Shown one piece after another: positions 23,600 to 35,134 of a stretch of DNA of 64,000 nt. The stretch is from Dictyostelium discoideum (taxonomy: Eukaryota), in contig CM000150.2 of the NCBI GenBank assembly GCA_000004695.1, positions 256,001 to 320,000 of the forward strand. Direction: 5' to 3'. Every line of letters starts with the position of its first letter. The first letter of the stretch is position 1. Both the position numbers and the translations under genes were made by a program. The notes under the pieces are model-generated. The model was not told the DNA's origin. It saw only the letters and a list, made by a program, of their open reading frames with translations, and ran no database searches.

Positions 23600-23608
<9 letters not shown>

Positions 23609-24611
23609 ATAAAAAATGATTAAAATTAAATTTGAGATTAATAAATAAATATTTAAAGATAATTTGAAAGAATTATTGATATTTTCAATTCCAGGATAAT
23701 TTGGATAAGAAGAATTTGGTGGAGCAGAAAAACCAGAGTCTTGACAAGGATAGAAATAGAGTGGACAAGTGAATTGGATATTACCAATTTTAACGGATTT
23801 ACCATCAGTATCACAAGTGACCCAAACAGTATTAACTTGAACTTGAAGATTTTGACCATCACAACGTGTTGGCCAACATACCATATTACTATTTGAGGTA
23901 GTTGTATCTGTGTATTCGAAACATCTACTATCTTCACCATACTTTTCAGAGATTTGAGTATTGGCCGATGCTTGGTTCGAAGCATCTACACAATATTGAT
24001 TGGATGGAATATCATAGAATGGGCAACCATCAGCAATGATGTCACCATAGGTATGAGAATCATTAAAGTGTCGATAGGCAACCAATATATCGGATGATGA
24101 TATCTTTACATTGCATACACCTTTACCAACACGAGTTGGACTGCAATATCTTTTTGAGGAATCTTGACAAAAGTAACCTGGTAAATTCCAACTCTTTTCA
24201 TTACAATCATCTAACCAATCACAACCTAATCCTTTACCCCACATCAATGGTTCAGCCAATGATGAATTAATATCAAACCAACCACTATCTTGTAATAATG
24301 CCAATGTTAAATTAGTAATTGGAAAAACTGGTGAAACATAACCCAACATATACTCTTCACCAGCTGTTCTTTTCTCCCAATGACTACCAACAGTTCCAGC
24401 TGCACCATAATCTTCCAATAATTCAAAAATTGATCCATTTCTTCGACAATTATAATGTGATTCTACAAAACTTTTAACTGCTGGTGTATTAACTGCTGGT
24501 CTTTCATAAATCCATGTTGCACCTTTTGGTGTTGTACCTGATGTTGTTTGATTTGCTCCTGGTTCAGCTATTTTTTTTTTTAAAAAAAAATAAAATAATA
24601 ATTAATATATG

Positions 24612-24642
<31 letters not shown>

Positions 24643-25837
24643 AAAAATAATTTTAAAACTTACTTCCAGTATAATAATAACCATTACCATTATATCTATT
24701 TTTAAAAGTTTTAAAGAAAGTATTTGAAAAACCTAAACCATGAGTCATTTCATGAATACCAACACGAATATATTCATTAAAAATAAAATCACTTGGTGGT
24801 GTTGATGAAACAAATGGTAAAAAATATTTTGGTGCAAAATTAATTGTTGCTGCTAATGGTCTTTCTCCCCAATTAAATACACATGGTGATGAATAAGCAA
24901 TCGTTGCTTATTATTATTAATTATTATTATTAATTATTATTATTATTATTTTAAAAAATAATTTTAGTATATTTATTATTTTTTTATTTATTTTATTTTA
25001 TTTTATTATTTTTTTTTACTTACAAGAAGCTCTAATTGGTCTTGAAGTTACAAAAACAACCATATCAGCATTTGGAATACCAGTATTAATATATGTATTA
25101 TTAATTACATATCTAAAATCACAAGTTGGACCTCTATCATGATTTAATTTTAAATTTGTAGTATATCTATCAACCAAGATCATTTCACCAAGAATATCTT
25201 GAATACTTGTGATAATATCTTTACTAATTAAATTGGCAACTTTATCACCAAGTAAATCATTTGCAGTGCAAGTGTAATTACATGGATAATAAGCACCTGA
25301 TGATACACATGCTGGTGCTACATATGAGGTTGGTGCAGCTCCAAGTAAAATAGTTTGACCAACATAATAACATGCACCTGTATCTTTTTGATTGTAAAGA
25401 TATGTTGTATCAAAATAAAATCTTAATGGTTTTCTTGGAGTTGCTGAACTTGCTTTTAATCGATAATTTGTATCCAAAAGTTTCATTCTCTCTGCATGTA
25501 AAAAATCATTTACCTCTTTATCAGTTGGTGGAACAATGATATTCTCTGCAACTTGATCATGAATACAATCATATCCTGGTAAATGTTGATGTCCATCCTT
25601 TATTATAAATCCATTCTCATCAATTCCATCAATAATTTTTGGTTGTTTTTCATTGATTGCTAATTTTTTAAAACCTTGAAAAAATCCATTATTATTATCA
25701 TTATTGGTTGATGAAAATTCCCTTTCAATCATCTGTTTATACCTATTGTTAATTATTTTCTTTAGTGATTTACCATCACTTTTGGATATTAATGATATAA
25801 TAAAAAATATCAAAAATATTTTAAAAATTGATTTCAT
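23600..25837 (-). CDS. Leishmanolysin-like (GP63/invadolysin, M8 family) zinc metallopeptidase with signal peptide, 3 exons (25837..25024, 24906..24664, 24567..23600)
   Basis: Exon 1 opens with a signal peptide, MKSIFKIFLIFFIISLISKS. Exon 2 holds the HEXXH zinc motif in IHEMTHGLGF. Exon 3 is Cys-rich (GCDWLDDC..., CSPTRVGKGVC...). Both donors are gtaagt and the splice phases were verified. The apparent stop at 25013 lies inside intron 1. Confidence 0.85.
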
Positions 25838-30361: not shown

Positions 30362-31251
30362 TTAAAATGGTTGTTGTAATTCATCTTGAAAGAATTTAAT
30401 TGAACCTTCAAAAACTGTTACAGAAGGACAACTAACAAAAACTTTATCATCTTCTTCTCTCCATTCAACTTCTAAAATACCACCATCCATTTGAACATTT
30501 GCTTTTCTATTATTTTTACCACGTAAAACCCCACTAACCAAAGCGGCAGCAGCACCAGTTCCACAAGAATTTGTTACACCAATACCCCGTTGCCAAACTC
30601 TAACACGTAGTGAATCTCTAGTTTTCACTTGTACGAATTCAACATTTGTCTTTTGTGGAAATATTGGATGTGATTCAATAACTTTACCATAGTAATCCAT
30701 TGGAAATTCATCAACATTCTCCAAATGTAATACACAATGAGGATTACCCATTGAAACTAATGTTGAATTAATAAAATGACCACCACATTGAATTACTTTA
30801 CTATATTCATTATATGATGAATTGGTTGATAATAATACTCTACCAAATGAATTTGATAAATCATTATTATTATTAATATTAATAATATTATTATTTAATT
30901 TAAAGATTGGACATTGTTGAAAAATATTTGAGTCGATTTGAAATTGATTTATATTTGGATGTTGAAAATTACCACCACTACTACCACCATGATGATCAGA
31001 TGTTTTCAAAACTAATGGATTACCTAAACTAACTTTACTCCAAAGTGTTTTTGCATTATTTAATGGATGTTGAGGAATGGTCATACATTGTTGTATACCT
31101 GCTATCGTATAAATACTAATACTTCTAGATTCAAATAAAAGATAAGGTGTTTGATTTAATGTTTTTAATCTATTTCTTGAAAAAAATGGTTTTAAATCTT
31201 CATTATGATGTGGTTCTTGATTATTATTATTATTATTATTATTATTATTTA

Positions 31252-31339
<88 letters not shown>

Positions 31340-31906
31340 TTGTTCAATTTCAATATTATTATTTTGATTATTTTGATTGTTTTGATTGTTTTGACTGTTT
31401 GTTCGATAAGATTTTAAATTATAATCTACAATATATTTGCAAACGCAAGAAACACCAGTTGTACAATTTTCAGCAATACTACCATCAGAATTAAAAATTA
31501 AAAGTTGAAAGTCAGTTTCATTCAATTTATCATTTGGAGGTGGTGTTAATACCAGTGTATTATCAGCACCAACGCCTTGTTCTCTATCACATAATCTTTG
31601 AGCAATGTTTTGTAATACTTGAATTGATGGTCTAAATGATGAATTATTATATTCTACCCTAAGATTATCAATATGAAATATAATAAAATCTTGACCACGT
31701 ACATGCATCTTACAAAATTTTAATATGACCGATGATAACAATAATTCATTTTGTTGTTGTTGTTGTTGATATTGTTGTTCTTGTTCTTGTTGTTTTTGAT
31801 AAAAAATTTGTCGATTCAAATTATTTTGTTGTTTTTGTTGTTGTTGTGTTGGAATTTGTGATGATGATAAAAATGAATTATGAAATGGGCATTTAGTTAT
31901 ATCCAT
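30362..31906 (-). CDS. Diaminopimelate epimerase (DapF)-fold protein with both catalytic cysteines, interrupted by poly-N/poly-Q insertions
   Basis: KFCKMHVRGQDFIIFH matches E. coli DapF FSKMHGLGNDFMVVD. LCDREQGVGADNTLVLTPPPN...FQLLIFNSDGSIAENCTTGVSCVCKYI matches LADRHLGVGFDQLLVVEPP...[42 protein letters not shown]...PIFPQKTNVEFVQVKTRDSLRVRVWQRGIGVTNSCGTGAAAA...GGILEVEW matches [16 protein letters not shown]...[42 protein letters not shown]...GGRLDIAW. Both active-site Cys positions are kept. Confidence 0.8.
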
Positions 31907-33881: not shown

Positions 33882-35134
33882 ATGGATAGACTATTAACAA
33901 TTTCTAACCATATTGGTAAAAATATTAGACAATTTTCAACATCAACAGAAGTAATGTATTTTAAAAAATATTAAATTTTTTTTCTTTTTTTTTTTTATTT
34001 AATAATAATAAATAATAAATAATTAATAATTAATAATTAATAATAAAAAAAAAAAAGGAAGTTTTATTTGAAAAAAAAGGAAAATGTTTAAAAGTTTTAT
34101 TAAATAGACCAAAAGCATTAAATGCATTGAATCCAAATATGGTTAAAATTTTAACACCAAAATATTTAGAGATGAAAACAAAGAAAGATGGTGAAGGAGT
34201 TATTGTAATGAAAGGAGCAGGTGAGAAAGCATTTTGTGCAGGTGGTGATATTAGAGCAATTTACGATTATAAACAATTGAATGAGGAACAAAAATCAAAA
34301 ACCAATGATATTGGTGACTTATTCTTTCGTGAAGAGTACATTTTAAATAATTTAATTGGTACTAATCCAATAGCACAAGTTTCAATCTACAATGGATTTG
34401 CAATGGGTGGTGGTATTGGTTTGTCAGTACACGGCAAATTCAGAGTGGCCACAGAGAATACAGTATTCGCAATGCCAGAGACCGGCATCGGTTTCTTTTG
34501 CGACGTCGGTGGCTCCTACTTCCTCCCAAGATTGCCAAATAACTATGGCATGTATCTAGCACTCACCGGCAGCAAACTAAAGGGTAACAATGTTTACCTA
34601 GCCGGCGTTGCCACTCATTTCGTTAGCAATGAGCATATTCAAGCTTTGGAAAAGGAGATAGAGGAATGCGAGAATCCAACCTCCCAAACCATCAATTCCA
34701 TCCTCACCAAGTACCATGACAAGTCTAAATCCACATCCAATGAATACAATGATAATTTGGGTGATATTGAAAGAATCTTTGGTAAAAACTCTGTCAAAGA
34801 AATCTTTGAACAATTAGAGTTGTTGGAAAATAGTGAATGGGCAAAACAAACTTTAAAAACCTTGAAATCAGTTTCACCCTCCTCTTTAATGGTAGTATTC
34901 GAACAAATGAAACAAGGTGCTAAATTACCATCTTTAGCTAAATGTTTGGAAATGGAATTCCGTATCTCTCAACATTTCCTTGAAAAACCAGATTTCTTTG
35001 AAGGTGTAAGAGCTTTGTTAGTTGATAAAGATAAAAATCCAAAATGGTTACCACCATCAATTGATCAAATCGATCAAACTCTTGTAAACTCTTATTTTAA
35101 ACCTTTATCAAATAATAAGGAATTAAAATTTTAA
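33882..35134 (+). CDS. 3-hydroxyisobutyryl-CoA hydrolase (HIBCH, enoyl-CoA hydratase/crotonase family), 2 exons (33882..33950 and 34058..35134)
   Basis: Exon 1 (MDRLLTISNHIGKNIRQFSTSTE) looks like a mitochondrial presequence and ends at a gtaatg donor. Exon 2 begins with EVLFEKKGKCLKVLLNRPKALNALN. It contains the crotonase core (GAGEKAFCAGGDIRA, GFAMGGGIGLSVHGKFRVATENTVFAMPETGIGFFCDVGGSYFL) and a HIBCH-type C-terminus. The splice phase was verified. Confidence 0.88.

Follow-up and report, generated by a model that had tools for sequence, protein, structure and literature searches.

A dictyostelid DapF paralog with intact catalytic cysteines and substituted reacting-centre residues

Introduction

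Diaminopimelate (DAP) epimerase, DapF (EC 5.1.1.7), has homologs that act on other substrates, among them the histidine racemases HisR/CntK, PddB and DcsC (PMC11602996; PMC8225329; PDB 7vdy). The present work concerns a DapF-like gene of the amoeba Dictyostelium discoideum. It lies on the minus strand at positions 30362–31906 of a stretch of 64,000 nucleotides (assembly GCA_000004695.1, contig CM000150.2, positions 256,001 to 320,000), which is referred to below as the window. A first-pass annotation, made from the letters of the window, had described a DapF homolog of 514 amino acids (aa) with both catalytic cysteines in an organism that requires lysine, and had proposed for it either an altered epimerase or racemase function or a horizontal acquisition from bacteria.

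The contacts between DapF and its substrate are described in two reports (PMC8225329; PMC12039745). The amino group at the reacting centre is bound by Asn11 and Glu208, together with Gln44 or water, and the reacting carboxylate by the backbone of Gly74, Asn75, Gly218 and Ser/Thr219 and by the side chain of Asn75. At the other end of the molecule, Asn64, Asn157, Asn190 and Arg209 bind the distal carboxylate, and Glu208 and the carbonyl of Arg209 bind the distal amino group. In DapF of Corynebacterium glutamicum (CgDapF), the introduction of alanine at each corresponding contact residue nearly abolishes activity; the variants N15A, N85A and E212A, altered at the equivalents of N11, N75 and E208, are inactive (PMC5296763).

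Lysine is essential for Dictyostelium, as stated in a preprint that refers to Marin 1976 and Franke & Kessin 1977 (bioRxiv 10.1101/227983), which bears out the auxotrophy assumed in the first-pass annotation. The DAP decarboxylase LysA has been reported in Dictyostelium and Polysphondylium, where it groups with trypanosomatid enzymes (PMC3846528). According to the same paper, regular trypanosomatids possess DAP decarboxylase activity and can use DAP in place of lysine, and one trypanosomatid species has both DapF and LysA. Phagotrophic Paulinella has an intron-bearing DapF (PMC3322482). Public annotation (UniProt and NCBI names) already carries the gene of the window with the label DapF. A literature search returned no paper characterising any Dictyostelium DapF, the family of three paralogs described below or its clade-wide E208Q substitution. 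A microarray entry, 'DDB0190752 diaminopimelate epimerase', is found in the literature and cannot be assigned to a particular paralog.

Results

Active site

Residues are numbered as in DapF of Haemophilus influenzae, using a reference that was checked to be 100% identical to PDB 1gqz, and were compared with those of 383 non-amoebozoan homologs. The gene of the window and its dictyostelid orthologs constitute clade A, one of three DapF paralogs (A, B1 and B2) in Dictyostelium. The catalytic cysteines are intact, as had been noticed at first pass: Cys148 (in E-N-C-T-T-G) aligns with Cys73, and Cys448 (in S-C-G-T-G-A) with Cys217. No clade-A ortholog, in any dictyostelid group, has lost either cysteine or the N-terminus of its helix. 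The four ligands of the distal carboxylate are all present, namely Asn139 (N64), Asn388 (N157), Asn421 (N190) and Arg440 (R209), and so are the equivalents of Gly218 and Thr219.

The departures of the window protein lie at the reacting centre and are E208Q (Gln439), N11Q (Gln72), G74T (Thr149), N75T (Thr150) and R78S (Ser153). Glu208 and Arg78, like Arg209, Asn190 and Cys217, are each found in 383 of the 383 non-amoebozoan homologs. Asn64 and Asn75 are found in 382 and Gly74 in 381; Asn11 is also found in 381, the other two having an alignment gap at this position. The first-pass annotation had matched CTTG of the amoebal protein to CGNG of the Escherichia coli enzyme. The cysteine does correspond, but the Gly-Asn pair that follows it almost everywhere is replaced, so that CTTG is a departure from the motif. 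In all, 51 columns reach at least 93% conservation among prokaryotes and the plant sequence sampled, and clade A departs from 8 of them, most of which lie in the GxGND loop, in the first catalytic loop, at position 208 and at the residue preceding Cys217.

The distribution of these substitutions among the orthologs indicates, from the alignment, that they follow an order along the dictyostelid tree and accumulated stepwise at the reacting centre. Wherever a clade-A ortholog extends over position 208, it has Gln there; all sequences of clade B (B1 and B2) and of Clastostelium have Glu. In the clade-A proteins of Synstelium and Acytostelium, the C-G-N-G loop and Asn11 are retained and E208Q is the sole change among the contacts. 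The loop reads C-A-N-G in Tieghemostelium, P. violaceum and one EukProt species. The C-(T/S)-T-G loop and Gln11 occur together only in the window gene and in its orthologs from D. citrinum and D. purpureum. N11Q, G74T, N75T and R78S are thus additions within Dictyostelium proper, on top of the clade-wide E208Q. A C-S-T-G loop like that of the D. purpureum clade-A protein was also seen in a GC-rich, bacterial DapF-like sequence of 500 aa from a metagenome contig of the European Nucleotide Archive (P0262). It keeps Glu208 and has a C-terminal extension of about 200 aa, the sequence of which resembles a GNAT-type acetyltransferase.

The occurrence of Gln208 in prokaryotes was examined by scanning one genome per species, for 185,579 species, with the back-translated motif Q-R-G-x-G-x-T-x-x-C-G-T-G. 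The motif has 21 matches, only 3 of which are in genes of the DapF family (Table 1): two from metagenome-assembled genomes (MAGs) of Firmicutes and one, a fragment, from a MAG of Planctomycetes. The two full-length genes encode proteins 30–36% identical to clade A, an identity that points to an independent origin of the bacterial substitution. Both also lack Asn157, and their sequences suggest divergent paralogs, not housekeeping DapFs. The neighbours of one of them (L018) are housekeeping genes only (CCA-adding enzyme, phosphoglucomutase, methyltransferases) and give no clue to its function.

Fold and family membership

The homology with DapF is strong, as had been proposed at first pass. The Pfam family DAP_epimerase (PF01678) matches with an E-value of 9.8e-42 and 142.3 bits against 34.7, in two stretches that correspond to the two half-domains. 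The NCBIfam DapF equivalog model TIGR00652 scores 182.4 bits for a cutoff of 114.65. A sequence search of the PDB matched DapF chains with E-values from 4e-51 to 1e-32, including those of Anabaena (9mro, 4e-51), Arabidopsis (3ejx, 6e-46) and E. coli (about 1e-39). The match with DcsC (7vdy) is weaker (8.8e-25), and no chain of a HisR/CntK histidine racemase is found among the PDB sequence matches at E ≤ 1. The bifunctional DapF/glutamate racemase of Chlamydia type (NF038284) was considered and rejected, as the score is 73.3 bits for a cutoff of 350.

An AlphaFold2 model was built from an alignment of 66 sequences. Its mean predicted local distance difference test score (pLDDT) is 80.6, with 313 residues at 90 or above, and its predicted template modelling score (pTM) is 0.77. 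Disorder is limited to residues 1–16, the poly-Asn tract 194–230 and the second insert, residues 308–352. The modelled protein has the complete two-domain, pseudo-symmetric DapF fold, with helices 149–161 and 449–461 beginning right after Cys148 and Cys448, respectively. In a Foldseek search against the PDB, the best match is 9mro (E-value 1.9e-28, target-normalised template modelling (TM) score 0.88). The best 26 matches are DapF chains except for two DcsC chains (7vdy), and substrate-bound DapFs are the best among them. The affinity with PhzF and proline-racemase-like enzymes that the first-pass annotation had entertained did not hold. Proline racemases, hydroxyproline enzymes, PhzF and PrpF are matched by Foldseek only at about 1e-10 to 1e-12, and neither PhzF (PF02567) nor the proline racemase/hydroxyproline epimerase family (PF05544) gives a Pfam match at E ≤ 1.

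Paralogs in dictyostelids

The gene is not the only DapF of the amoeba. The orthologs from dictyostelids were combined into a profile, which was run against 1.84 billion representative proteins. Behind these orthologs, the highest-ranking hits are a transcript of Clastostelium recurvatum, an amoebozoan outside the dictyostelids, and second DapF-like proteins of Acytostelium subglobosum and Polysphondylium violaceum. With the second P. violaceum protein as the query, two further groups were retrieved, B1 and B2. B1 is present in all dictyostelid groups, its species including D. discoideum, D. citrinum, D. firmibasis, D. dimigraforme, D. purpureum, Cavenderia fasciculata and H. album. B2 is found only in Dictyostelium proper and includes the AX4 gene DDB_G0270030 (P0312). 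Two B2 entries labelled 'D. discoideum' are 87% identical over the core columns.

B1 and the Clastostelium protein are canonical at 11 of 11 contact positions, with an apparent exception in Tieghemostelium lacteum (R209N). In B2 a Val or Gly stands in place of the distal-carboxylate ligand Asn157, and the GNPH motif is altered as well (P0308–P0310, P0312, P0313, P0315), which makes B2, judging from these residues, a second candidate for changed specificity. Compared over the same species pairs, clade A stands at 84.5%, B1 at 73.8% and B2 at 59.5%; clade A is thus the most conserved paralog. All three classes exceed the cutoff of TIGR00652. Automated annotation therefore labels every one of them 'diaminopimelate epimerase', and the score does not discriminate function.

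B1 lies at an unrelated locus in a D. discoideum assembly. Neither LysA nor other dap genes are found beside the window gene or beside B1, where only unrelated eukaryotic genes are encountered in the neighbourhoods inspected. About 7 kb from B1 lies a gene for a PALP protein of 324 aa (PF00291; L003:17940-19149, plus strand), a family that depends on pyridoxal phosphate.

Origin of the amoebozoan clade

Neighbour-joining trees were calculated from 271–272 trimmed columns with 200 bootstraps, one with 129 sequences and one with 146, including the closest bacterial matches to Clastostelium, under two distance corrections. Clade A is supported at 100%, clade B at 100%, the group of B and Clastostelium at 96.5–100% and the group of all amoebozoan sequences at 72–84%. 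The only plant sequence sampled (Cuscuta) and all sampled prokaryotes fall outside the amoebozoan clade; the possibility of a plant-type DapF, which the first-pass annotation had put forward for checking, thus finds no echo in the trees. The closest non-amoebozoan relatives are prokaryotic, with 30–44% identity, and no further eukaryote is found among the listed best matches to the Clastostelium protein. No bacterial sister group or donor has more than 15% bootstrap support in these trees. Sequences of Nitrospirota, which scored well with the profile, do not group with the amoebozoan clade.

About ten residues are inserted between Asn11 and Arg36 in A, B and Clastostelium alike. The spacing of these two residues is 35 in A, mostly 34–36 in B and 39 in Clastostelium, against 24 (range 24–28) in prokaryotes and 25 in the plant. 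The three also have an insertion site in common, behind the first catalytic helix. These insertions support a single amoebozoan clade independently of the trees. The simplest history comprises one ancient entry, or inheritance, before the split between Dictyostelia and Clastostelium, an early A/B duplication and a later duplication giving B1 and B2. The placement of clade A outside B and Clastostelium may be an artefact of neighbour joining on a long-branched clade. An acquisition from bacteria, one of the two proposals made at first pass, does not agree, as a recent event, with the position of the gene in an old amoebozoan clade that includes Clastostelium.

Gene structure and genomic context

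The gene is an uninterrupted open reading frame (ORF) of 514 codons followed by TAA, with an ATG start and a single exon, exactly as first delimited. Its parts are listed in Table 1. The protein starts with MDITKCPFHN, a sequence common to D. citrinum and similar in D. purpureum. The first core block contains the GxGND loop, the N64 equivalent and the first catalytic helix. In the central block, TIAG and VSLGNP correspond to TLAG and V(D)MGxP of DapF, and the C-terminal block is the best-conserved part of clade A. The low-complexity tracts are encoded by (AAT)n and (CAA)n repeats, in agreement with the first description. Residues 21–57 (31736-31846, minus strand), which are Gln-rich, are modelled as a single long helix with a pLDDT of up to about 90. 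This may be an artefact of modelling poly-Gln or a real coiled segment. Two plus-strand ORFs, 31147-31494 and 31205-31417, with runs of poly-Tyr and poly-Ile, were rejected as genes; they are the (AAT)n tract read in reverse.

Table 1. Position of the features of the clade-A gene, of its immediate neighbours and of the prokaryotic genes with Gln208
Feature	Position	Strand	Basis
Complete coding sequence, clade-A DapF-like protein	30362..31906	-	ORF; DapF family by profile, PDB sequence and fold matches
N-terminal extension, aa 1-57, Gln-rich, without counterpart in bacterial DapF	31736..31906	-	alignment, model
First conserved core block, aa 58-165, DapF residues ~1-90	31412..31735	-	alignment, pLDDT >90
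Gln72, codon CAA, at the Asn11 position	31691..31693	-	alignment
Catalytic loop C148-T-T-G-V-S-C154 (canonical C73-G-N-G-x-R-C)	31445..31465	-	alignment
Insert 1, aa 166-235, Asn/Gln-rich low complexity, encoded by (AAT)n	31202..31411	-	disordered in model
Central core block, aa 236-307, beta-strands	30986..31201	-	modelled confidently; left unaligned by hidden Markov models
Insert 2, aa 308-352, length variable between orthologs	30851..30985	-	disordered in model
C-terminal core block, aa 353-514, DapF residues ~140-274	30365..30850	-	profile, PDB, alignment, model
Asn388 (Asn157), distal-carboxylate ligand, MGNPH motif, kept	30743..30745	-	alignment
Gln439, codon CAA, at the Glu208 position; W-Q-R-G for W-E-R-G	30590..30592	-	alignment
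Cys448, codon TGT, second catalytic Cys (Cys217), directly before modelled helix 449-461	30563..30565	-	alignment, model
(ATT)51 repeat, (AAT)n on the coding strand	31220-31372	+	
(TTG)16 repeat, (CAA)n on the coding strand	31751-31798	+	
Neighbouring gene, 885 aa	27495-30152	+	
Neighbouring gene, 272 aa	32484-33302	-	
Prokaryotic DapF-family genes with Gln208	L018:85-924; L006:~2-730; L019:~5-226	all +	motif scan

The gene is native and under strong purifying selection, and the view taken at first pass, of a gene adapted to Dictyostelium and no contaminant, was borne out. Long poly-T and poly-A runs mark its flanks, which are extremely AT-rich; inside the ORF the GC content rises to 0.25–0.30, like that of neighbouring genes. 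The neighbourhood is made of ordinary eukaryotic genes, encoding a leishmanolysin, an ECH_2 hydrolase and a HEAT-repeat protein. Gene order is the same in D. citrinum (Peptidase_M8, a gene of about 900 aa, the DapF-like gene, a gene of about 260 aa, ECH_2), and both immediate neighbours are kept in D. purpureum. These neighbours encode low-complexity-rich proteins without Pfam match, and genes of similar size sit beside the D. citrinum and D. purpureum orthologs. Further orthologs are found in Tieghemostelium lacteum, Polysphondylium violaceum, Synstelium polycarpum, Acytostelium subglobosum, Heterostelium album and one EukProt genome, so that clade A is present across all dictyostelid groups; a compact ortholog has 348 aa (P0004). 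Over the folded core, the ratio of nonsynonymous to synonymous substitution rates (dN/dS, Nei-Gojobori) is 0.026 against D. citrinum (dS 0.27) and 0.107 against D. purpureum, for which dS is saturated at about 1.3, a range of 0.03–0.11. Contamination, recent transfer and a decaying pseudogene are ruled out by composition, synteny, spread of the orthologs and dN/dS.

Some annotations in this set call for comment. The H. album clade-A ortholog (P0008) has an N-terminal half that fails to align with DapF and is apparently a faulty prediction. At the D. purpureum locus (L002:6001-7500), the annotation removes an in-frame 'intron' of 60 nucleotides, and the DNA reads as a continuous ORF of 499 codons. 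In the window, ORFs 23600-24418 and 25016-25837, both on the minus strand, match leishmanolysin (Peptidase_M8), the former in its C-terminal and the latter in its N-terminal part. They are presumably exons of one intron-split gene, as a Peptidase_M8 gene of at least 682 aa occupies the syntenic place in D. citrinum. ORF 34127-35134 (plus strand) matches ECH_2 at 4e-115, a match typical of the 3-hydroxyisobutyryl-CoA hydrolase type. As listed it begins with TTG, and the true start or a first exon is therefore probably upstream.

Discussion

Taken together, the residues kept and those replaced lean towards clade A being an epimerase that is still catalytic through its two cysteines, has a remodelled pocket around the reacting centre and would act on a DAP-like compound from bacterial prey. 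Such an enzyme would exchange a proton at the alpha-carbon of an amino acid without cofactor, with Cys148 and Cys448 as the two bases, and its substrate would bear a second carboxylate at about the length of DAP. The substrate or the kinetics probably differ from those of canonical DapF, because the only acidic residue of the pocket is lost and the loop of Cys73 is remodelled. The neutral residue at position 208, next to the retained Arg209, raises the net charge of the pocket by one, and a ligand that has one ammonium fewer than DAP would be favoured. Speculatively, this might be a mono-amino dicarboxylate or a DAP that is N-acylated, like that in stem fragments of peptidoglycan. B1 would be the more plausible enzyme for the housekeeping interconversion of LL- and meso-DAP that feeds the reported LysA, in a route from prey DAP to lysine. 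An altered function had been proposed at first pass from the breadth of the fold. It is still plausible, on the different basis of lost substrate contacts (E208Q, N11Q, G74T, N75T, R78S).

Several points weigh against a changed function. It is read from sequence and a model. The replacement of Glu by Gln is conservative in shape, and Gln could still form hydrogen bonds with amino groups. The mutational evidence consists of alanine substitutions only, made in another enzyme (CgDapF), and the contacts from backbone NH groups at positions 74–75 are independent of the side chains. The distal site is fully kept, which speaks for DAP itself as a possible substrate, and in the basal clade-A members, from Synstelium and Acytostelium, E208Q is all that separates the contacts from the canonical set. 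As to lysine, the presence of LysA depends on the tree of one paper (PMC3846528), and dap genes were sought only in the neighbourhoods of the window gene and B1.

It is possible, though rather unlikely, that clade A is an ordinary DAP epimerase (EC 5.1.1.7) in which Gln208 and the altered loop are tolerated and which, with LysA, turns LL- and meso-DAP from prey into lysine; the three paralogs would then differ only in expression, localisation or kinetics. The protein passes the cutoff of the curated DapF equivalog model, its best structural matches are substrate-bound DapFs, and the cysteine pair and four distal-carboxylate ligands are kept. The basal members retain N11, G74, N75 and R78, a few bacterial DapF-family genes do have Gln208, and the precedents of LysA and of DAP used for lysine (PMC3846528) apply equally. 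However, Glu208 is invariant in the non-amoebozoan homologs and the E212A variant of CgDapF is inactive (PMC5296763), and the bacterial examples of Gln208 that are full-length lack Asn157 and look like divergent paralogs. Besides, with a canonical B1 in the same genomes nothing obliges clade A to retain the activity, and its reacting centre changed stepwise while the remaining protein was more constrained than B1. A loss of catalysis altogether, leaving a pseudoenzyme that binds DAP or muropeptides, for instance as a sensor of bacterial cell-wall fragments, would explain why residues needed for turnover in CgDapF (the equivalents of N11, N75 and E208) are lost and the distal recognition sub-site is kept; the long disordered inserts and the N-terminal extension could mediate interactions. 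This is improbable, since both cysteines and the helix N-termini that tune them, superfluous for mere binding, are kept in all clade-A orthologs.

The gene might instead have been acquired horizontally in recent times, be a bacterial contaminant, or encode a plastid-type DapF within a complete DAP pathway to lysine. Such an origin would fit the prokaryotic nature of the closest non-amoebozoan relatives (30–44% identity) and the cyanobacterial and plant DapFs that head the PDB matches. It is very improbable in view of the dictyostelid composition, codon repeats and flanks, the synteny in two other species and the orthologs in all dictyostelid groups. Moreover, the amoebozoan clade excludes the plant and the sampled prokaryotes, an insertion is shared by A, B and Clastostelium, and lysine is essential for the organism. 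For the canonical amoebozoan DapF, a two-step salvage of prey DAP, from LL-DAP to meso-DAP to lysine, is a reasonable role. Such a terminal DAP-to-lysine salvage by way of the reported LysA was absent from the first-pass annotation and is a live alternative to the functions it had envisaged.

Dictyostelids require lysine and eat bacteria with DAP-rich walls. A conserved family of three DapF genes, together with LysA, suggests an amoebal salvage of cell-wall amino acids as part of the nutrition of the predator. A more specific proposal is that clade A is a previously unrecognised epimerase of bacterivorous amoebae for a DAP derivative with one amine fewer, such as gamma-D-Glu-meso-DAP, the tripeptide stem or N-acyl-DAP, or for a mono-amino dicarboxylate. 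This is doubtful at present. If it were true, A with B1, B2 and LysA would make up a small eukaryotic set of enzymes converting amino acids of bacterial cell walls into usable L-amino acids. Clade A may be regarded as a natural experiment, in which the invariant Glu208 was replaced and yet the paralog is the most constrained of the three. Either a new specificity stands behind the annotation 'DapF', as with HisR and DcsC, or Glu208 is dispensable for DAP epimerisation. Curated equivalog models name the three paralogs identically.

The nearest relatives of clade A are the other amoebozoan DapFs. B1 (D. discoideum P0305, P. violaceum KAF2070568.1), the Clastostelium protein (EP01113_P005580) and B2 belong to the same amoebozoan clade, and B1 and B2 are found in the same genomes as A. 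They differ in that the B-type proteins of dictyostelids and Clastostelium are 29–34% identical to the window protein over 271 core columns, and clade B has insertions of its own (between N157 and N190, and between C217 and GG) that are lacking in A.

Among eukaryotes, trypanosomatids (for example Herpetomonas muscarum) and Paulinella ovalis-like cells likewise keep a terminal enzyme of the DAP pathway with the rest of the pathway absent, and the hosts are bacterivorous or symbiont-associated and lysine-auxotrophic. Their genes, unlike the dictyostelid ones, are single copies from specific donors (Bacteroidetes, alpha-cyanobacteria), for which neither active-site divergence nor a paralog family has been reported.

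The canonical DapFs (for example H. influenzae 1gqz/2gke, Anabaena 9mro, A. thaliana 3ejx and C. glutamicum 5m47) have the same fold as the window protein (TM score 0.77–0.88), the same pair of cysteines at helix N-termini and the same N64, N157, N190, R209, G218 and T219, with a score above the family cutoff. The window protein differs by Gln208, Gln11, Thr74-Thr75 and Ser78, by its N-terminal extension of 57 aa and two long disordered inserts, and by its host, Dictyostelium, which has no de novo synthesis of lysine. The racemases DcsC (O-ureidoserine), HisR/CntK (histidine) and PddB (2,4-diaminobutyrate) combine the DapF fold and two-cysteine mechanism with a different amino acid. They are labelled 'DapF' by sequence tools, and DAP epimerisation is not their role. 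In sequence, true DapFs (1e-51 to 1e-32) are much closer to the window protein than DcsC is (9e-25). In PddB the equivalents of N64, N157, N190 and R209 are replaced and N11, G74, N75 and E208 are kept (PMC8225329), and in the binding model of HisR the equivalents of N11, G74/N75 and E208 are retained (PMC11602996). Clade A has the reverse pattern, with the distal site kept and the residues of the reacting centre changed.

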